From Vicinamibacteria bacterium (lineage in GTDB: Bacteria; Acidobacteriota; Vicinamibacteria; Marinacidobacterales; Marinacidobacteraceae), in NCBI GenBank assembly GCA_963555995.3, contig OY821641.1:3392001-3456000 (forward strand): 64,000 nucleotides of DNA, given 5' to 3'. How positions within the stretch are numbered: the stretch's first letter is position 1; each line of letters begins with the position of its first letter. The notes beneath the pieces are model-generated. The model saw nothing but the letters and a program-made list of their open reading frames with translations. It had not been told where the DNA came from and did not search any database. Below, in pieces: positions 37,313-46,808 of this stretch. Both the position numbers and the translations under genes were made by a program.

Positions 37313-40300
37313 TCAGACGCGAAGATCCGTCCGCCGCGGCGGCGATCCGGTAAGCCCGGCACCGGGCATCCGGCCGGCGCTCGCCAGGTCGTAGAGGACC
37401 GGCACCACAAAGAGGGTCACGAGCGTGGCGAACGCGACCCCGAATGCGAGCGACGTGGCCATCGTGACGAGCAGTTCGGCCTGGAAAGCCCGTTCGAGGA
37501 TCAGCGGCCCGACGCCCGCGCAGGTGGTGATCGTGGTGAGGACCACCGGGCGGAAACGCCGCGGCGCGGCCGACAGCGCCGCTTCCCGGGGAGACCGGCC
37601 GGCGCGGCGGCTCCGGTTCATGGAATCGAGCAACACCAAGGCGTCGTTCACCACGATGCCGACGAGCGGCGCCAGACCGAAGGCGCTCATGGGATCGAAA
37701 CGCAAACCGAGCAGCAGATGTCCGAACACGGCGCCGGCGAGACCGAAGGGCACCGCGGCCATGACGACGAACGGCTGGACGAAGGATCCGAGGGGCACCG
37801 CGAGGAGGACGTACACCACCATCACGGCCAACAGGAGGTTGCGCACCAGCACCGGGTTGGCCCTGGCGTGTTCGCCGGCGAGTCCGGTGATCTCGAAGCG
37901 GGCGTCGGGAAAGCGGTCCCGCAACTCGGGAAACACCCGGCGATGCGCTTCGGCGAGCACCGCCTCGGGGAGTGCGTGCGTGGAGTCCACGTTCGCAAAC
38001 ACCGTGGCCGCGCGCGCCGAATCCACCCGGCGGACCACGGAGTCCCCGCTGTCGCTCACGATCCGGGCCACTTCCCCAAGCGGTATCGCGGCGCCGTCCG
38101 GGCGGCGAACCGGGAGGGACGCCAACCCGAGAGCGCCGCCCGACTCCCCACGAGGAGCCCGGAGGACGATCCGCAGTTCCTCGCGGCCGCGCTGGACCCG
38201 GCGCACCTCCTCCCCATGAAATGTCTGACGAAGCTGCCTTCCCGCGGCGCCGGCGTCAAGGCCGAGACCCGCTCCTCCGGACCGGGTGCGCGCCACCAGT
38301 CCCGGCGCCACGGACTCGAAGTCGTCCCAGACGGATGTGACGCCGGGGAGGACCCGCAACCTTTCCGCCAAGGCGGTGGACGCGGCGCGGACCGTCCCGG
38401 GGCTGGGGCTGCGGACCCGGATGGAAACATCCGACTGCTGACCGAGGCCCTCGCCGACCACGGTCACGTTCGCACCGGCGGGCGCCGGCGGCATGCGGGC
38501 GCGCAGCCGATCGGCCACGTCCCGGTTCGTAAGGAACGGGCGGTCCGAAGGCGATGCGAGCCGCCAGGTGATCTGGCCGATCTCGGCGGCCGCACTCCCT
38601 CCCGTCGCGCCAAGGGACTCTCCCAGACCGAGCGGAAACTGCTGTCCGACCAGCACCGCGCGGCGTCGCTCCAAGTCCACGCCGAACTCGGTTCTGATCT
38701 CCTCCCGGAAGCGGTCCACCACTCCGTTGAGGCCGGCGATCACGTCGCGCGTCGCCTCCGGCGGGGAGCCCGGGGGAAGCCGTACCAGAACGTGAACCGT
38801 ATTGTCTTCGAGGGGCACCTGCGTCACGACCGGGACCCAGCCCCCGGCGAGCAGCCCGACCGCCAGAGCGAGCGAGGAAACGGCGATCCCCAAGGTCATG
38901 AGGCGATGGGCGAGCGTCCACCGGAGCGCCGGACGGTAGATGCGGCGCACCGCGGCGTCGAAGCCGCGGCGGCATGACGCCCGCACCCGCGCGAGCCCGC
39001 GGTTCGGGCGCACCGGGAGACCCCCCTGCGCCAGGTGGTGGGGCAGGACCCAGGCCACCTCCAACAGGGAAAACGCCAGGACCGGAATGACGACCCGGGG
39101 CAGATCGGCGACGAGTTCACCGAAGACGCCCGGGATGCCGAGGAGCGGGGCGAAGGTCACCATCGTGGTGAGCACCCCGAAGGCGGCGGGGAAGAACACC
39201 TGCCGCGTACCGCGGATCGCGGCCTCTTCCGCTCCGTCGCCGCCAGCCTCGATCCGGTGCTGGATGCTCTCGCCCACCACGATGGCGTCATCCACCACGA
39301 CGCCGAGGGCCATGATGAAGCCGAACAGGCTGACCATGTTGAGGGTAATCCCGAGTCCGGGCATCAACAGGAAGGCGCCGAAGAACGTGAAGGGCAGTCC
39401 GGCCGTCGTCCAGACGGCGAGACGGGTCGAGAGGGTGAAGAACAGCACCAGGAAGATGAGGCCCAGACCCAGCAATCCGTTCCGGATCATCAGCGCCAGG
39501 CGGTCCGTGAACACCTCGGCGGCGGAGTACCACGGAGTTGCGGTGAGTCCGTCGGGCAGCGGGAGATTCCGAACCACCGTCACGACCCGGTCCGTCGTCT
39601 CCCGCAGGCGACCTCCCTCCGGGAGACCCACCGTCAGGAAGACGGCGGGCTCGCCGTCCATCCAGGCCTGCCGTCCGGTGACGTCGAAGCCGTCCTTCAC
39701 GGCGCCCACGTCGCCCACCCGGACCACGCCCCCGTCCGGAGCGACGATCAACGGAATCCGTGCAACATCTCCGGCGCGCGCCGCGGCGCCTTCGCTGCGC
39801 ACCCGGAGTCTGCTCGTTCCGCTCCGCATCGCGCCGGCCGGGACGTCCGCAGTCGCCTCCCGAAGGGCGGCCGCCACCCGGTCGAAGGTCAGCCCGAACC
39901 GGGTCAGGTTCTCCTGAGGGATCTCGATCGCCATCTCGAAATCCCGGCCGGTGAGCCGTTCTGCGCCCAACACCCCGGGAACGGCCGTCACGGCGTCCTG
40001 CACCAGCCGGGCCGCTTCCCGCAGGCTTCGTTCGTCGGTGCGCCCGTGCACCGCGATCCGCAGGATCTCGCGTGATGCCGTTACCTCGGACACCACCGGA
40101 TCCTCCGCAGCCGCCGGGAGAGTCTGGAGCGACGCGACGCGCTCCCGCACGATGTCACCGACCCGCCGCGCGTCGGCGTCTCCATCGAGCACGAGCAGGA
40201 ACACCGCCGCTCCGTCCGTGGCGACCCCGCTCGTTTCGGTGACTCCCGCGATCCCCTGCAGGGCTTCCTCCAGACCGAGCAGGACCCGTTCTTCGACGAG

Positions 40301-40510
40301 GGTTGCCTCGGCCCCCGGAAGCGCCACACCGACACGGATGGCCGACGGCGTCGTCTCCGGGATGAGCTGGTGGGGAATCTCTCCCAGCGTGAGGTAACCG
40401 GCCAGGCAGACGCCGAAGAAGACGAGGTTCGCCGCCACCCGGTTCCTGACGAACCAGGCAATCACCCCGCTCGAACGACCACTTCCGCCCGCGGGCGGTT
40501 CCGCCGTCAC
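37313..40510 (-). CDS. RND-family (AcrB/AcrD/AcrF) efflux permease
   Basis: 1065 aa; WFVRNRVAAN, LGVVVDDAIVVGE, GIVVNDALVL, RFRPVVLTT; two hydrophobic TM clusters. Confidence 0.92.
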   Translation of the reverse strand: MTAEPPAGGSGRSSGVIAWFVRNRVAANLVFFGVCLAGYLTLGEIPHQLIPETTPSAIRVGVALPGAEATLVEERVLLGLEEALQGIAGVTETSGVATDGAAVFLLVLDGDADARRVGDIVRERVASLQTLPAAAEDPVVSEVTASREILRIAVHGRTDERSLREAARLVQDAVTAVPGVLGAERLTGRDFEMAIEIPQENLTRFGLTFDRVAAALREATADVPAGAMRSGTSRLRVRSEGAAARAGDVARIPLIVAPDGGVVRVGDVGAVKDGFDVTGRQAWMDGEPAVFLTVGLPEGGRLRETTDRVVTVVRNLPLPDGLTATPWYSAAEVFTDRLALMIRNGLLGLGLIFLVLFFTLSTRLAVWTTAGLPFTFFGAFLLMPGLGITLNMVSLFGFIMALGVVVDDAIVVGESIQHRIEAGGDGAEEAAIRGTRQVFFPAAFGVLTTMVTFAPLLGIPGVFGELVADLPRVVIPVLAFSLLEVAWVLPHHLAQGGLPVRPNRGLARVRASCRRGFDAAVRRIYRPALRWTLAHRLMTLGIAVSSLALAVGLLAGGWVPVVTQVPLEDNTVHVLVRLPPGSPPEATRDVIAGLNGVVDRFREEIRTEFGVDLERRRAVLVGQQFPLGLGESLGATGGSAAAEIGQITWRLASPSDRPFLTNRDVADRLRARMPPAPAGANVTVVGEGLGQQSDVSIRVRSPSPGTVRAASTALAERLRVLPGVTSVWDDFESVAPGLVARTRSGGAGLGLDAGAAGRQLRQTFHGEEVRRVQRGREELRIVLRAPRGESGGALGLASLPVRRPDGAAIPLGEVARIVSDSGDSVVRRVDSARAATVFANVDSTHALPEAVLAEAHRRVFPELRDRFPDARFEITGLAGEHARANPVLVRNLLLAVMVVYVLLAVPLGSFVQPFVVMAAVPFGLAGAVFGHLLLGLRFDPMSAFGLAPLVGIVVNDALVLLDSMNRSRRAGRSPREAALSAAPRRFRPVVLTTITTCAGVGPLILERAFQAELLVTMATSLAFGVAFATLVTLFVVPVLYDLASAGRMPGAGLTGSPPRRTDLRV

Positions 40511-40688: not shown

Positions 40689-41843
40689 TCAGCGGCCCAG
40701 CACCGCGGTCAGAGCGGCTGCCACTTCGTCCACCTGGGCCTCGGTGATCACGAGCGGGGGCAGCAGCCGGATCACGGTGGACCCGGCCGGCAGCGCCAGC
40801 ACCCCGTTCGCCATCAGCCGCTCCAGCGTGGGGCGGCATCGCTCCCGCAGCTCGATCCCGATCATCAGGCCCAACTGCCGCACGGCCCGCACCCGAGCGG
40901 GGGGCTGCAGGGAGAAGCGTTTGCGGAACCGGGCGCCGCGCCGCTCCGCGCGCTCGGCCAGCCGTTCGTCCTCCATGAACCGGATGGCGGCGAGCGCCGC
41001 CGCGCACGCCAGGGGGTTGCCCCCGAAGGTGGTGCCGTGCTTGCCGACGAGCGGCGGCAGCCGTTCGCCCGCGAGCACCGCGCCCATCGGCACCCCGCCG
41101 GCGATGGCCTTGGCCACGCACATGAGGTCCGGCTCGACCTCGTAGCGTTCGCAGGCGAACATCCGGCCGGTGCGGCAAAAACCCGTCTGCGATTCGTCCA
41201 GGATGAGCATGGCGCCCGCTTCGTCGCAGGCGGCGCGAACGGCCTGGAGATACTCCGGCTCGGCGGGCCGCACGCCGCCCTCCCCCTGCACCGGTTCCAG
41301 CAGCACCGCCGCCGTGTCCTCGCCGACCGCGGCGCGCAGCTTCCCGGCGTCGCCGAACGGCGCGAAGGAAAAGCCGGGGACCAGCGGCGCGAAGGGTTCG
41401 CGGTAGTCCTTCCTGAACGTCGCGCTGAGGGCGCCCATGGTGCGGCCGTGGAAGCCGCGCATCGCGGAGACGATCCCCGTGCGGCCGGTGGCGAGACGGG
41501 CGAACTTGAGGGCCGCTTCCACCGCTTCGGCTCCCGAGTTGCAGAGGAAGGCCCGGGTGAGCCCCCGCGGTGCGATGGAAACGAGCTTCTCGAGGAGCTC
41601 GGCCCGGCGGTCGTTGTAGAAGATGCCGGGGCAGGTCACCAGGGTCCGCGCCTGGTCGCTGATCGCCTGCGCCACCGCGGGATTGGCGTGCCCGACGCTC
41701 GCCACGCCGATCCCGCCCACGCAGTCGAGATAGCGGCGTCCCCGGTCGTCCCAAACCTCGGCGCCGCTGCCGCGCACCAGCGTCAGGTCCCGCTTGGGAT
41801 AGACCTCGAGCCCCCGGGTCCGCTCGACCTCCTGGAAGTTCAC
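40689..41843 (-). CDS. lysJ: [LysW]-aminoadipate semialdehyde transaminase (class III PLP aminotransferase)
   Basis: [48 protein letters not shown]; operon context. Confidence 0.9.
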
Positions 41844-42649
41844 TCGATCACCGTCCCCCGTCCCGCGAGCGCGTCCCGGAGGGGGTGCTCCCCGCGCCCG
41901 TCGGCGATCACCACCCGGGTGCCGCCCGTCGCGACCAGCCGCTTGAGGGCCAGCATCTTCCGCTTCATGCGTCCCGAGACCTGCGCTTCGCGCCGTTCCA
42001 CCTCGGCGCGGGACATCCGGGGGACGATCGAGGCGGGGTCGTCCGGGTCTTCCAGAAAACCGGGGGCTTCGATCAACTGGACGACCAGCTCGGCGCGGAG
42101 TGCGTCGTTGAGGACCGTCAGGATGTCGTCGTTCTCCGAATTGATGGCAGCGCCCTGCTCGTCGAGGATGGGGACCGTCAGGACCGGCGCCAGCCCGCGG
42201 TCAAGCAGGAGGCGCAGCAGCCCCGCATCCACCTCCGCCGGCTTGCCCGACAGGTCGCGCCGGATCAGGGTCTTGCCCCCCTCCCGGATGCGGATGCCGC
42301 GATTCCGGCGGCCCCGGATCAGGGCGCCGTCGAGGCCGGTGAGGCCGATGGCGTTCACCCCGCGCCGCTGGAACATCTCCACGATCCGCTTGTTCCTGAG
42401 GCCGGCGTAGGCCATGAGGATGAGGTCCACCGCCTCGGCGTCGGAGTACACGCTGTCGTAGCCGGAGACCGAGGTGAGCACCTGCTTCCGGATGCCGAGG
42501 CGCTCCCCCAGTTCGTCGCGCAGCGCGTTGGCGCCGTGGACGACCACGAACGGCTTCCCGATTCCCGCGAGATCGCCGGTGATCCCCTCCAGGTTGACCG
42601 ACGCGCCCCCGCCGATCTTGATCAGGAGCACGGTGTCACGCGGTGTCAC
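41840..42649 (-). CDS. lysZ: [LysW]-aminoadipate kinase (start GTG 42649 or 42631)
   Basis: LLIKIGGG, VVHGAN, GLTGLDG, INSEND, GRMKRK; amino-acid kinase family. Confidence 0.88.
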   Translation of the reverse strand: MTPRDTVLLIKIGGGASVNLEGITGDLAGIGKPFVVVHGANALRDELGERLGIRKQVLTSVSGYDSVYSDAEAVDLILMAYAGLRNKRIVEMFQRRGVNAIGLTGLDGALIRGRRNRGIRIREGGKTLIRRDLSGKPAEVDAGLLRLLLDRGLAPVLTVPILDEQGAAINSENDDILTVLNDALRAELVVQLIEAPGFLEDPDDPASIVPRMSRAEVERREAQVSGRMKRKMLALKRLVATGGTRVVIADGRGEHPLRDALAGRGTVIE

Positions 42650-43304
42650 GTCCGGAGCCGAACGGGCTGATGGTCCCGTTCGGGACGGGCGTCCACCCGG
42701 CGGGGCCGGCCGGCGGCGGATACCTCTCCGAGCAGAGGACGCTCGCGCCGCCGACGGTGGCGCGGCGCATCTGGAAGTAGTCGGGGTCCTCGTTGAAGCG
42801 GCTCGCCACGGTGACGCGGAACGAGGCATCGGTGACGACGACGTTCATGGCCCGCAGGTAGCGGGTGCGTTTCTCGATCAGCGGGAGGCCCCGTTCGAGG
42901 GCGCGGCGCAGGTCGCCGCGGTCGAACCGCTTCACGAAGTTGAAGACCTTTTCGGCCCCGATCCGGCCGCGTTCCCGGATTCGCACCCCGCGGAGTTCGC
43001 CGTTGAAGAGGAACATCCGCTCCCCGTCGAAGAAGGGCATGTTGTTCGCCACCCGGATCCCTTCGTTGCGGAAGGCGCTCCGGGCGTGCGCGAGCAGGAG
43101 GCGGGTGCGGCCCCGGGGCCGGTGGCGGTCTTCCCAGATCGGGGTGATGTTGCGGTAGATCCGCCAGCGGCCCGCTTCGAGCCAGGCGCAGCCCCAGCCG
43201 TGTCCCTGGAACTCGCGGCTGTTCCTCGCGACCTCGGTGAACGCCTCCAGGTGTTCTCCCAGGTCGAACGGTTCGTCGCCGCGGACGCAGAGCAGCCGGC
43301 ACAT
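42636..43304 (-). CDS. Class II glutamine amidotransferase / Ntn-hydrolase (EgtC/YafJ-like)
   Basis: N-terminal MCRLL (Cys1 nucleophile), HGWG, LAHAR, NNMPF, FNGEL, CSE. Confidence 0.85.
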   Translation of the reverse strand: MCRLLCVRGDEPFDLGEHLEAFTEVARNSREFQGHGWGCAWLEAGRWRIYRNITPIWEDRHRPRGRTRLLLAHARSAFRNEGIRVANNMPFFDGERMFLFNGELRGVRIRERGRIGAEKVFNFVKRFDRGDLRRALERGLPLIEKRTRYLRAMNVVVTDASFRVTVASRFNEDPDYFQMRRATVGGASVLCSERYPPPAGPAGWTPVPNGTISPFGSGRDTA

Positions 43305-43335
43305 GGGGGGATTCTGTCGCTGCGGGGACCGGTCG

Positions 43336-44361
43336 TCAGATGGGATGGAGACCCGCGAACTCGAGTCCCAGCGTCTCCTCGAACCCGCACGCCAGGTTGA
43401 ACGCGTGGACCGCCTGCCCCGCGGCGCCCTTCATCAGGTTGTCGAGGGCGCTCATCGCCACCACCCGCTTCGTGTCCGGGTCCCGTTCGAACCCCACGTC
43501 GCAGGTGTTCGTGCCCGCGAGGATCCCGGGTTCGGGATAGCGGTGAATTCCGCTCCGGCCCTTCACGATCCGCACGAAGGGCTCCCCGGCGTAGGCGTCG
43601 CGGTAGATCCGCCACAGCTCCCGGTCGTCGAGGCCGCGGTCCGCGAAGACGTGACAGGTGGCAAGCACCCCGCGCACCATCTCGATCGAGGTGGCGGAGA
43701 AGTGGAGGTCCTCCACGCCGAGCGCTGCCGCGATCTCCCCCAGATGACGGTGCCCGGTGGGCCTGAACGCCCGGGCGGCGCCGCTGCGTTCCGGGTGATG
43801 GCTCGCCGCGGTCGCCTGGTTGCCGGCTTCGCTGGAGCCGACCAGCACCTCGATGACCGCCGATTGGACCACTCCCGCGTCGCACAGCGGCTTCATGGCG
43901 AGAATGGCGGCCGTCGCGTTACAGCCGGCGCAGGCCACCAGATCCGCGTCGCGGAGCGCCTCCCGGTTCAACTCCGGGATTCCGTAGACGAAGCGGCCCA
44001 GGAGGTCCGGGCAGGGGTGCGGCCCGCCGTACCAGCGCTCGTAGGCGGCGGGGTCCCGCAGCCGGAAGTCGGCGCCCAGGTCCACGATCCGCCCGGCGAC
44101 CCGGCGGAAGTCATCCATCCGGCGGGCCGACTCGCCGTGGGGAAGACAGACGAAGAGCGCGTCGCAGCCGGAGAGCTCGTCCAGCGGGCGGAAGCGGAGC
44201 CGGGTGGCGCCGCGCAGGTTCGGGTGCGCGCCGTGGGCGAACTTCCCGGCCAGGCGCTCGGAGGTGATCTCGGCCACCTCGACCTCCGGATGGCCGAGCA
44301 GCAGGCGCAGCAGTTCGCCGCCCGCGTAGCCGGAGGCGCCGGCGATGGAGGCCCGGATCAT
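43336..44361 (-). CDS. lysY: [LysW]-aminoadipyl-phosphate reductase (ArgC family)
   Basis: [42 protein letters not shown]. Confidence 0.92.
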
Positions 44362-45194
44362 GGGTCCGCGGAAAGGAGGTAGGACACGATCCGTCCCGGG
44401 ATGTCAACGCCGGTGACCCCGATGCTGTTGCGGAACTCCATCGTGTAGTTGACCTCGTTGACGAGCAGCCCGTCAGCGGTCTCGAAGAGGTCCACGGCGA
44501 GGACGCCGCCGCCCACCGCCTCCGCGGCCCGGAGCGACAGCTCGGCGAGGTCGGCGGTCACCGGGCGGTTGGAAGTCGTCGCTCCCCGCGCGGTGTTCGT
44601 GATCCAGTGGTCCGAGGTCCGATAGACGGCGGCGATGCACTCGTCCCCGACCACGAAGCTGCGGATGTCCCGGCCGCCCTTCTCCACGTACTTCTGGGCG
44701 AAGAAGATGGAGTGGTGGTAGCTGCCGAGGATCGCCTTGTGCTCCAGCACCGTCTCCGCCGCCTGCCGGTCGTTGATCCGGGAGAGCAGCCGCCCCCAGG
44801 AGCCGACCGCCGGCTTCAGCACCACCGGGTAGCCGAGTTCCTCGATGGCTTCGAGGCTGGAGTCTTCGGTGAACGCAACCCGGGTTTCCGGTTGCGGCAC
44901 TCCGAACTCCGAGAGTGCGACCGCGGTCAGGATTTTGTCGCCGCACTTCCGCGAGACCTCGTAGCGGTTGACGCACCGGATGCCCATGCTCTCGAAGAGC
45001 CGCAGGGCGTGCATCGCGCGGGAGTGGTTGATGGAACGCTCCAGGATGACGTCCACCGCGGGCGGAGTCCGCAGGTCGAACACCAGCTGCCGGTCGTCGA
45101 GGAGGACCAGCTCGACTCCGGGGCGCCTCCGCAACTCCCGGATGAGGAGCTTTTCTTCCGGACGGATCAGCGAATGAAGGAACCCGACCCTCAT
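44358..45194 (-). CDS. lysX: Alpha-aminoadipate--LysW ligase (RimK/ATP-grasp)
   Basis: [31 protein letters not shown] (TM signature as in LysX, not ArgX); ATG at 45194 overlaps the lysW stop (ATGA). Confidence 0.92.
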
Positions 45195-45355
45195 TCGCCC
45201 CAATCCTCTTCGGCGGCCGGAGCCTCACCCAGGGCGACCGGATCGAGCGCCAGGATCTCGAGTTCACTGCCGCATTCTGCGCACTCGAAGACTTCGCCCT
45301 CGACGGGGTCGTCGGAGATCTCGACGGCAGCGCCGCACAGCGGGCAATCGGTCAT
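45191..45355 (-). CDS. lysW: Amino-group carrier protein LysW, 54 aa (not in ORF track)
   Basis: Hand translation [54 protein letters not shown]: two CxxC motifs and C-terminal EDWGE. Confidence 0.96.
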
Positions 45356-45410: not shown

Positions 45411-45790
45411 TCAGACTCGCCGGGACTCCGCGCTCGACGGGGCGAGGGAGTTGGGGCCCACTTCGATCACGTCCCGGGACATCTGTCTCAACTCGGCCAG
45501 GAACCGGTCACGGTCAGGGCAGCGGCGCCAGCGAATGGTGTCGAAGCGCGCTGGAGGGAAGCCGCGGATCAAGTCCGCGAGATCGGACGTGGCCATCTGC
45601 GTGGCGAACCCGTCATCACGGTTCACGAACAGGTCCGGGATGTCCGAGTGGCGGTCCCGAAGGTGGCGCCTTTGGAGGGCGGTGGCCAGCGGTCAGACAG
45701 AAAGGTGTCCTGGAGGCGGCGGACGTACTCGGAATTCCAATCCAAAGGCGGCACAGGATCGTCTCGTAGCAGTACTGCGGACTCGGGCAT
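45411..45790 (-). pseudogene. Degenerate AbiEii/AbiGii-type nucleotidyltransferase toxin
   Basis: Across frameshifts: PFCLTAG / TALQRRHLRDRHSDIPDLFVN resembles the family motif FYLxGGTAL...HRxSxDLDLF. It joins directly to a C-terminal-like segment and is far shorter than an intact gene. Confidence 0.6.
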
Positions 45791-46046
45791 AGCTTTCCCT
45801 CAGGCCGGGCGGCCAGAGCATTGCGATGACTTCGGGGGTGAGGAGCCGCTTGACTTCTTCGATACCGAGCGCGGTGACCGTCCGGTGCCAGGGCAGCCGC
45901 GTCAGCATCCGGACGAAGAGCCGCTGCTTGTCGAATTGGCCAACCCGTTCCCGCTCTCCGGAGAGCACCTCGGCGAGCTCCTCCGGGTCGTGCTTGTAGT
46001 GCCACACGATCGTCTTCGCGATCCGGACGAGTTCGGGATCGGCCAT
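45693..46046 (-). CDS. Small hypothetical protein, probable antitoxin partner of the AbiEii-like remnant (C-terminus possibly altered)
   Basis: IVWHY...LFVRML..LPW resembles small proteins I recall upstream of AbiEii genes; it overlaps the remnant's start. Confidence 0.55.
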   Translation of the reverse strand: MADPELVRIAKTIVWHYKHDPEELAEVLSGERERVGQFDKQRLFVRMLTRLPWHRTVTALGIEEVKRLLTPEVIAMLWPPGLRESYARVRSTATRRSCAAFGLEFRVRPPPPGHLSV

Positions 46047-46083: not shown

Positions 46084-46743
46084 TCAGCCGCCGCGCAGGA
46101 TCCGGCAGGCGCGGGTGGTGTTGAAGATCCCGCAGGAGCAGAAACGCGCCATCGCCTCGGCGCAGTCCTCCGGAGATCGCCGTCCGGTCCGCACCCAGTC
46201 GAGCATCTTGCGGGCGAACCCGAACGAGAGCATCCCGTGCCCGCACATCGTGGAGAGCTGGAGCGTCGCCCGGTCCGGGAGCCGGTCCAGGTTCCCGAAG
46301 AAGCCCAGGCTGTACTCGACGCTGTGCCGCACGATGCCGGCCTGGCGCGCGAGCTCGGCGGCCCGCTCGGTCAGCCCGCTGATATTGATGCTGATCCCGA
46401 GGTCGGCATGCTTCAGATCGCCGAGGAACGCGACCAGCGCCGCTTCGGTGTCGAAGACCGCGGAGACGACCGTGGGGGCGTCCACCCCCGTCCGGATCGA
46501 GTCGGCCGCGAGCCGCTTGCGCCGCCTCCAGTGCGCCAGGGGATTCAGCCGGGAGGAGCGGAAGATCCCGCCCTTGGTGGCGTCGCCCAGGTTGATCGGC
46601 CCGTGCCGCAGCGCGATCTCGGTGAACCGGCGCAGCTTCTCGGGGGAACCCTCGTCGTTGATACCCCGCGCCGCCATCGCGAAGACGATGTAGTCGTCCT
46701 TCAGCGTCTCCGGAGCCCCGTAGCGGTGGAGGGTGTTCGTCAT
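46084..46743 (-). CDS. Conserved hypothetical protein with Cys-rich C-terminus
   Basis: Start MTNTLHR (ATG 46743); HSVEYSLG, TMCGHGM, C-x6-CSCGIFN. Confidence 0.75.
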   Translation of the reverse strand: MTNTLHRYGAPETLKDDYIVFAMAARGINDEGSPEKLRRFTEIALRHGPINLGDATKGGIFRSSRLNPLAHWRRRKRLAADSIRTGVDAPTVVSAVFDTEAALVAFLGDLKHADLGISINISGLTERAAELARQAGIVRHSVEYSLGFFGNLDRLPDRATLQLSTMCGHGMLSFGFARKMLDWVRTGRRSPEDCAEAMARFCSCGIFNTTRACRILRGG

Positions 46744-46808
46744 GCGAGGCGGGAAGCATACGGGCGCGGGCCGCCGAAGGTAGGGCGCCGGTCCGTAGAA
46801 TCGGCGCC

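Follow-up and report, generated by a model that had tools for sequence, protein, structure and literature searches.

The window analyzed here, a 64,000-nucleotide stretch of genomic DNA, contains six genes on the minus strand (40689..45355) in the order lysW-lysX-lysY-[Ntn hydrolase]-lysZ-lysJ. The first encodes LysW, an amino-group carrier protein (45191..45355; TIGR01206, 55 bits, cut-off 53.2; PF21344), which has 54 residues, two CxxC motifs, and a Glu-ended C terminus, EEDWGE. It is followed by genes for the ATP-grasp LysW-aminoadipate ligase LysX (44358..45194; TIGR02144, 319.5, cut-off 275.6) and for LysY, a LysW-aminoadipyl-phosphate reductase of the ArgC family assigned from a TIGR01850 match (364.5 bits) and its operon position (43336..44361). 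The fourth gene (42636..43304) codes for a 222-residue Cys-nucleophile Ntn amidohydrolase starting Met-Cys-Arg, here termed P0001, a candidate LysW-γ-lysine hydrolase. The LysW-aminoadipate kinase LysZ comes next (41840..42631 with a GTG start, or from a start at 42649; NF010659, 233.7, cut-off 223), and then the class III aminotransferase LysJ (40689..41843), whose best model, the LysJ profile NF042418, gives 463.7 bits where its cut-off is 700, and which passes the cut-off of TIGR00707. ATGA overlaps read from the sequence join lysW to lysX and lysX to lysY, and a GTGA overlap joins lysZ to lysJ; lysY and the Ntn gene are separated by 31 nucleotides, and the Ntn gene abuts or overlaps lysZ. 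The lysW-lysJ cluster contains no M20 gene, and a promoter and terminator scan gave no signal above shuffled sequences. The profile matches and overlaps bear out an earlier sequence-only reading, which had described this gene order, the tight packing, and an operon free of M20 genes.

The operon shares with the LysW pathway of Thermus thermophilus a LysW ending in EDWGE, an aminoadipate-type LysX, LysZ, LysY, and LysJ. It differs in that no LysK gene was found and an Ntn hydrolase is encoded instead, in that the LysW of its relatives is often Gln-ended, and in that its own genome lacks a recognizable upper half of the pathway. Specificity motifs have been reported as F-I-T-NS for LysX, I-Y-V-GF for ArgX, and Y-I-T-NA for bifunctional enzymes (PMC12998189). 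Alignment to PDB 3vpd gives F-V-T-NS here, one conservative difference from the aminoadipate type, and judged by its sequence this LysX is of the aminoadipate rather than the ArgX type. An arginine role for the operon is unlikely: the type of its LysX speaks against it, as do separate arg genes elsewhere in the genome, namely an argC-argD-argF'-argB cluster, argG, and argH (argJ is missing). Many relatives' operons also carry genes for homocitrate synthase, homoaconitase, and homoisocitrate dehydrogenase. No orthologue of homocitrate synthase or homoisocitrate dehydrogenase is recognizable in the genome studied here, where the enzyme families of the upper aminoadipate pathway are represented only by LeuA/C/D/B, isocitrate dehydrogenase, one unassigned aconitase-family protein, and one unassigned DRE-TIM enzyme (27-29% identity to operon homocitrate synthases). 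Because the upper pathway is not recognizable and both lysA and dapF are present, lysine flux through the operon in this organism is unproven.

P0001 itself has no Pfam match, no match to M20 or LysK models, and a weak match to the EgtC model TIGR03442 (37.2 bits), short of the cut-off of 218.65. Its AlphaFold model (pLDDT 92.8) finds its best structural match in EgtC (Z 25.6, rmsd 1.9, 204 residues aligned); the predicted fold of P0001 is that of an EgtC-like Ntn hydrolase, though the protein is not EgtC. EgtC, a γ-glutamyl-hercynylcysteine sulfoxide hydrolase (PDB 4zfj, 4zfk, 4zfl), is likewise a stand-alone Cys-nucleophile Ntn protein (TM up to 0.80), has the G-x-G-W-G and P-x-W motifs, the Arg of the HAR/AVR motif, and Asn-Gly in common with P0001, and cleaves a γ-glutamyl amide, as P0001 may do. 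However, the two proteins are only 19-20% identical, P0001 is surrounded by lysW-pathway genes, and its substrate would be protein-borne. The fold, the N-terminal Cys, the Arg, and Asn-Gly also recur in the glutaminase domain of GlmS and PurF (Z 21-22; 22.4 to GlmS), for which residue roles have been described in human GFAT-1 (PMC7000685), but P0001 lacks an attached synthase domain, its 222-residue open reading frame being wholly Ntn domain. Met1 and Cys2 are invariant in 25 of 25 aligned family members, as are Arg75, Asn101, and Gly102, which align with EgtC; 15 of the 25 match PF13230 at E<=0.01. The features of a Cys-type Ntn hydrolase are all present: a Cys following the initiator Met, a predicted Ntn fold, an Asn-Gly oxyanion motif, and a carboxylate-binding Arg. 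In the ESM Atlas, the matching clusters were all unnamed or labeled generically as class II amidotransferases.

One feature sets the family apart from its structural relatives. The pocket Asp of related enzymes binds the free α-amino group of the substrate. In P0001, the Asp of the T-D-S/T-E glutamine-pocket motif (GlmS/PurF type, Asp123) is absent and replaced by Gly116; in the alignment, two EgtC-like proteins place the Asp of their GSTDSE sequence opposite this residue, and PurF from the same genome has TTSDTE at this position. Among 186 full-length Met-Cys homologues, position 116 is Gly in 182 and Asp in none (4 could not be parsed), and a G-x-I-G-A sequence where EgtC-like proteins have G-S-T-D-S provides a simple marker for the family. 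Judged from sequence, the change from Asp to Gly fits a protein-borne glutamate substrate. Arg73 and Asp123 of Escherichia coli GlmS have been called key for substrate recognition (PMC9280312), and no paper on the role of the pocket Asp was found in the open literature. Net charge gives no clear signal for LysW binding: it ranges from -6 to +12 across the family, which is not consistently basic, with 17 conserved basic versus 14 conserved acidic positions. Both the pocket change and the Gln-ended carriers described below had been overlooked in the earlier reading.

We searched for LysK throughout both contigs of the genome, which is 92.95% complete. The top score with TIGR01902 is 80 bits, whereas 4 of 14 control genomes pass the cut-off of 163. 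Of 20 M20 (PF01546) matches, the ten strongest were compared with the LysK model NF003367; none passes (best 106 bits, cut-off 363), and an NCBIfam scan places all ten in other families, leaving no hidden LysK among them. The check for lysK that the earlier reading had called for thus returned nothing at LysK level. A tblastn match at C1:3593330-3594535 was rejected: its query was a mis-picked open reading frame (L147), the reading frames there yield only a BCCT transporter, and TIGR01902 has no match at that place. Extra lysK labels downstream of lysK in five other loci share this origin.

We then compared the distribution of the two hydrolases. The Ntn gene is flanked by lysW-pathway genes in 79 of 80 family loci, which according to their record titles come from several bacterial phyla and one archaeon, and this arrangement is therefore not due to chance; in the genome of the exceptional locus, lysX lies elsewhere and LysK is absent. 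Almost all loci have the gene between lysY and lysZ. In three (genomes G116, G042, and G060), it follows lysJ, the slot held by lysK in 14 loci. No LysK was detected at E<=1e-25 in any of the 50 Ntn-carrying genomes tested (50 of the 80 loci). Seven short M20 matches near six family loci (117-228 nucleotides) fall far below the length of an M20 gene and probably stem from shadow reading frames among the queries, and the absence of LysK thus rests on the genome-wide searches rather than on the search of locus neighbors. We also surveyed 72 genomes from four lineages, chosen by lysX and not by the Ntn gene. In the phylum of our organism, lysX occurs in 32 of 300 genomes (16 LysK-only, 16 Ntn-only); the corresponding figures are 19 of 201 in the phylum of G333 (2 and 17), 11 of 151 in the class of G349 (0 and 11), and 10 of 301 in the archaeal phylum of G345 (0 and 10). 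In total, 18 genomes have only LysK and 54 only the Ntn gene, with none carrying both and none neither; omitting three center genomes that had entered through the Ntn gene leaves 18 and 51 (n = 69). The mutual exclusivity of the two genes, proposed earlier as a test, is thus upheld in these samples, which consist of possibly incomplete metagenome-assembled genomes. On a LysX+LysY tree, the LysK/Ntn label requires a single change (support 68), and an independent-pairs test finds only one pair and has no power; the 72 genomes are therefore not independent trials. Of the 268 lysX-negative genomes of our phylum, one (G026) has a strong family match, a truncated copy without the Met-Cys start, and the other 16 of the 17 strong carriers in this sample have lysX. 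Other M20 enzymes of the ArgE/DapE family, which could act promiscuously, are present in most bacterial carriers, our genome included. A PF01546 match is found in none of five small archaeal carriers, however. One of the five, G888, with 1.16 of its 1.2 Mb in a single contig, encodes a complete pathway in the order lysW(Glu)-homocitrate synthase-homoaconitase-homoisocitrate dehydrogenase-lysX-lysY-Ntn-lysZ-lysJ.

These findings together suggest that the Ntn protein is probably a non-orthologous LysW-γ-lysine hydrolase acting in place of LysK. The earlier proposal that this gene replaces lysK is supported on comparative grounds by its distribution, by its EgtC-like predicted fold, and by the five archaeal carriers lacking M20 proteins. 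LysK, the [LysW]-lysine hydrolase (TIGR01902, NF003367), would catalyze the same step, and the two genes occur in a complementary pattern in the same operons; yet LysK is an M20 metallopeptidase of unrelated fold and chemistry, whereas the Ntn protein has a Cys nucleophile, is expected to need no metal, and has no sequence similarity to LysK models. The bond cut would be the amide between the γ-carboxyl of the terminal glutamate of LysW and the α-amino group of lysine. After removal of Met1, the Cys2 thiol would attack this γ-amide, with Asn101-Gly102 forming the oxyanion hole and Arg75 holding the free C-terminal α-carboxylate of LysW. With Gly116 in place of Asp, the pocket would have space for the peptide bond linking the terminal glutamate to the preceding part of LysW. 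Lysine would then leave, and attack of water on the thioester would return LysW to the Glu-ended form used by LysX.

The same chemistry could convert a Gln-ended LysW to the Glu form. A terminal Gln occurs in the LysW of 18 of 46 Ntn operons versus 0 of 16 LysK operons, and all 10 Glu/Gln changes at this position fall on the Ntn side of the tree, although only a modest bias is left when branch length is taken into account (P about 0.035). Deamidation by the Ntn enzyme would make it understandable that these operons tolerate Gln-ended carriers. An analogy exists in the Pup system, where Dop both deamidates and removes Pup. Pup is a small carrier ending in G[EQ], whose terminal Gln must be deamidated before ligation through the γ-carboxyl (PMC2588565). 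That system serves protein tagging rather than amino-acid synthesis, however, and its deamidase has a glutamine-synthetase fold. The association with Gln-ended carriers could also mean that the enzyme serves carrier maintenance only, deamidating Gln-ended LysW or removing wrongly loaded amino acids, with lysine release left to an unlinked M20 peptidase or another enzyme. The ArgE/DapE-family M20 proteins of our genome, and TIGR01902 matches of 92-117 bits, below cut-off, elsewhere in several carriers, could fill the latter role. We consider this improbable: 28 of 46 Ntn operons, including ours, keep the gene despite a Glu-ended LysW, the five archaeal carriers have no M20 match, and a pure maintenance gene should tolerate LysK, yet it is present in none of the 18 LysK genomes.

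A covalent acyl-enzyme would also permit transfer. The LysW-glutamyl thioester, formed from LysW-lysine or from new Gln-ended LysW, might be passed to the next aminoadipate, freeing lysine and reloading the carrier without ATP, much as ArgJ passes on an acetyl group in cyclic arginine synthesis; LysK would still be replaced. The gene between lysY and lysZ occupies an argJ-like slot, argJ standing between argC and argB in argC-argJ-argB-argD operons, and transamidation could load Gln-ended LysW directly. This would amount to a cyclic, ATP-saving carrier pathway run by one Cys enzyme across bacteria and DPANN archaea, a carrier-protein counterpart of ArgJ in which LysX serves only for priming, an improbable scheme. 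We also think transfer as such a long shot, as every intact Ntn gene among the strong carriers of our phylum is accompanied by lysX, the closest folds (EgtC and the GlmS glutaminase domain) belong to hydrolases, and ArgJ has a fold different from the Ntn fold. Least likely of all, and very improbable, is a small-molecule glutaminase or γ-glutamyl amidase (EgtC/Dug3-like) that travels with the operon lineage and does not act on LysW: class II glutamine amidotransferases share its fold and one origin on the operon tree suffices for exclusivity, but the gene is kept in all 54 LysK-less lysX genomes, in bacteria and archaea and at two operon positions, it is truncated in the sole carrier without lysX, the Asp of the free-glutamine pocket is missing, and the pathway of G888 would lack its last step.

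Searches of the open literature, which carries the smaller part of LysW biochemistry, found no LysK-replacing amidotransferase in the LysW pathway, and nothing on LysW with a C-terminal glutamine or on lysine biosynthesis via LysW in Woesearchaeota. If the Ntn protein is indeed the LysW-γ-lysine hydrolase, it would put a name to the last lysine enzyme that so many LysW-pathway genomes seem to lack (54 of 72 sampled), a case of non-orthologous displacement in a core pathway. It would add a new substrate class to the class II Ntn hydrolases, a γ-glutamyl amide at the end of a protein, and would account for carriers whose genes specify a blocked (Gln) terminus. The break seen in the lysine synthesis of many uncultured bacteria and archaea would prove to be only apparent, and metabolic models would err in treating these microbes as lysine auxotrophs because lysK is missing.

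The operon comprises six minus-strand genes at window positions 45355-40689, lysW, lysX, lysY, an open reading frame for the 222-residue Ntn hydrolase P0001, lysZ and lysJ. LysW, LysX and LysZ each score above their NCBIfam cut-offs, LysY falls into the ArgC family by NCBIfam, and the nearest NCBIfam model for LysJ is Thermus LysJ, with a score under that model's cut-off. The gene order proposed in the sequence-only reading, with the Ntn gene between lysY and lysZ, is thus real, and the tight packing is borne out by three junctions that overlap by ATGA or GTGA in the sequence. A transporter gene of the AcrB/AcrD/AcrF family (37313-40510, minus strand) lies immediately 3' of lysJ, and two minus-strand open reading frames upstream of lysW (45693-46046 and 46084-46746) have no Pfam or NCBIfam matches. 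We consider the Ntn protein a good candidate for a non-orthologous LysW-gamma-lysine hydrolase that likely replaces LysK. Among the other explanations, an ArgJ-like transferase is very unlikely and a bystander amidase is the least credible.

The lysK search proposed in the sequence-only reading found no LysK at model level in the 3.8-Mb window genome (two contigs, 92.95% complete): the top TIGR01902 score is 80 bits against a cut-off of 163, which 4 of 14 control genomes exceed, and none of the ten strongest of its 20 PF01546 (M20) matches passes a LysK model. Searching 50 of the 80 family-carrying genomes likewise gave no LysK match at E<=1e-25. Mutual exclusivity, another check suggested there, was assessed in genomes chosen by lysX and not by the Ntn gene. 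In the phylum of the window genome, lysX occurs in 32 of 300 genomes, 16 with LysK over cut-off and no family member and 16 with the family and no LysK; the Ntn gene lies inside the fetched operon in 14 of the latter, and in the other two, G139 and G260, the contig bearing the operon stops short of it. LysX was found in 19 of 201 genomes in the phylum of G333 (titled Gemmatimonadota; 2 LysK-only, 17 Ntn-only), in 11 of 151 in the class of G349 (titled Melioribacteraceae; all Ntn-only) and in 10 of 301 in the phylum of G345 (titled Woesearchaeota; all Ntn-only). The pooled 72 genomes comprise 18 with LysK only and 54 with the Ntn gene only (three of them, G333, G349 and G345, having entered via the Ntn gene), none with both and none with neither. 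Several LysK-negative genomes have M20 matches under the cut-off (92-117 bits) outside the operon, and five archaeal genomes selected from those without a TIGR01902 match contain no PF01546 match. Among 268 lysX-negative genomes of the window phylum there are one strong family match (G026) and three weak ones near E 1e-9, two of these EgtC-like with GSTDSE. The G026 copy (L224:9920-10441) is 5'-truncated and lacks the Met-Cys start; the operon is present in its congeners G042 and G139, and this copy apparently decayed after pathway loss.

A FastTree phylogeny was built from joined LysX and LysY sequences. Its 65 rows are 47 of the 62 bacterial genomes picked by lysX, as separate loci, plus 17 family-search loci and the window, with nine further archaeal loci left out. 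On this tree LysK and Ntn types are separated by one change (support 68), giving one independent pair. With a single change, exclusivity may derive from one or two ancient swaps, and its weight lies not in genome count but in the fact that all LysK-less descendants, in phyla far apart, have retained the Ntn gene.

P0001 begins Met-Cys-Arg, has no Pfam match and hits the EgtC model weakly (37 bits, cut-off 218.65). The best structural match of its AlphaFold model (25-row alignment, pLDDT 92.8) is EgtC (Foldseek TM <=0.80; Z 25.6, rmsd 1.9, 204 residues), with the GlmS and PurF glutaminase domains next (Z 21-22). Cys-2, Arg-75, Asn-101 and Gly-102 are invariant across the aligned family. In human GFAT-1, Met is removed, Cys2, Asn123 and Gly124 are hydrolytic and Arg95 lies in the glutamate pocket (PMC7000685); judged by motifs, these roles may transfer to P0001. 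Two EgtC-like proteins read GSTDSE, and the PurF of the window genome TTSDTE, at a site where family members show G-x-(I/T)-G-(A/S). Of 186 full-length homologues that start with Met-Cys, 182 carry Gly at the pocket-Asp position and none carries Asp; the other four were unparsed. The pocket Asp of GlmS-type enzymes binds the substrate alpha-amino group, and we take GlmS Asp123 to be the Asp of the TDSE-type motif. Asp123 is listed among the glutamate-binding residues and, with Arg73, as key in substrate recognition in one paper (PMC9280312). A retained Arg and a lost Asp would be expected for LysW-gamma-lysine, where a peptide bond ties up the alpha-amino group and leaves the alpha-carboxylate free, and the pattern thus fits this substrate. 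A protein search returned 2194 homologues from 2963 candidates, the best 120 of the 2194 being unnamed or generically named. Three distant, longer matches, P0161 (477 aa), P0224 (356 aa) and P0229 (987 aa), contain part of the family domain and are possible fusions or assembly artefacts.

The window LysX reads F-V-T-NS at five signature sites, close to F-I-T-NS, the form specific for aminoadipate, and different from both ArgX (I-Y-V-GF) and the bifunctional type (Y-I-T-NA), as these are given in PMC12998189. Many relatives carry a homocitrate-synthase-like gene within the operon (TIGR02146 best or second-best model, under cut-off), and the window genome, G000, has a separate acetyl route to arginine, an argC-argD-argF'-argB cluster (contig C1:759262-763669, L235) including N-acetylornithine carbamoyltransferase (NF003384 above cut-off). 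Together these make lysine the likely product. No argJ was found in this genome. Against a simple lysine picture, neither homocitrate synthase nor homoisocitrate dehydrogenase is clearly recognisable in the genome, and lysA (C1:1844017) and dapF (C1:2909785) occur there but dapB does not, nor does any dapA that passes its cut-off; an unassigned DRE-TIM enzyme (C1:1835020) and an aconitase-family gene (C1:1918826) are present. These two half-pathways, a lower LysW half without a clear upper half and a partial diaminopimelate set, could be explained by uptake of aminoadipate or diaminopimelate, or by unrecognised enzymes.

In the sample from the phylum of the window genome, 8 of the 14 Ntn operons that could be read encode a Gln-ended LysW, versus 0 of 16 LysK operons; such carriers also occur in 6 of 75 readable family-search loci and in 3 of 8 readable archaeal loci. 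Among tree rows the counts are 18/46 Ntn versus 0/16 LysK, with 10 changes, every one on the Ntn side (P ~0.035 when weighted by branch length). By ATP-grasp ligase chemistry, LysX requires a free gamma-carboxyl, so Gln-ended carriers need a deamidase. An enzyme cutting the LysW gamma-amide would supply this role, and the candidate hydrolase probably also deamidates Gln-ended LysW. Carrier maintenance as its only function is very unlikely. The window LysW ends in Glu, leaving release as the sole evident task of the enzyme here. G888, almost one contig, has one run of lysW(Glu)-homocitrate synthase-homoaconitase-homoisocitrate dehydrogenase-lysX-lysY-Ntn-lysZ-lysJ; its Glu-ended carrier needs no deamidation, and a PF01546 scan found no M20 enzyme able to free the product. 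Four small archaeal genomes (G794, G850, G754 and G951; L279, L276, L280 and L281) have a tandem lysX-like pair with a single Ntn gene and lack LysK; if the downstream-acting specificity of the pair includes an ArgX-like second member, the Ntn enzyme may also release ornithine.

Pathway genes adjoin the Ntn gene in 79 of 80 loci found by searching with it, most commonly as lysW-X-Y-Ntn-Z-J, the nearest loci (91-95% identity) being titled Acidobacteria or Vicinamibacteria. The sole exception is in G318, which has lysX elsewhere. There, an intact family gene (L051:8001-8640) has, by eye, glycoside-hydrolase-like and Rieske-oxygenase-like flanks, with lysX distant and no LysK in the genome. In G116, G042 and G060 the Ntn gene lies 3' of lysJ, a slot held by lysK in 14 loci. 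The pertinent passages of a 2025 paper name LysK as last-step hydrolase and mention no alternative (PMC12998189), and searches of open-access full text yielded no account of such an enzyme. The operon is a variant of the known LysW pathway, and the variant itself is new relative to the open-access literature.
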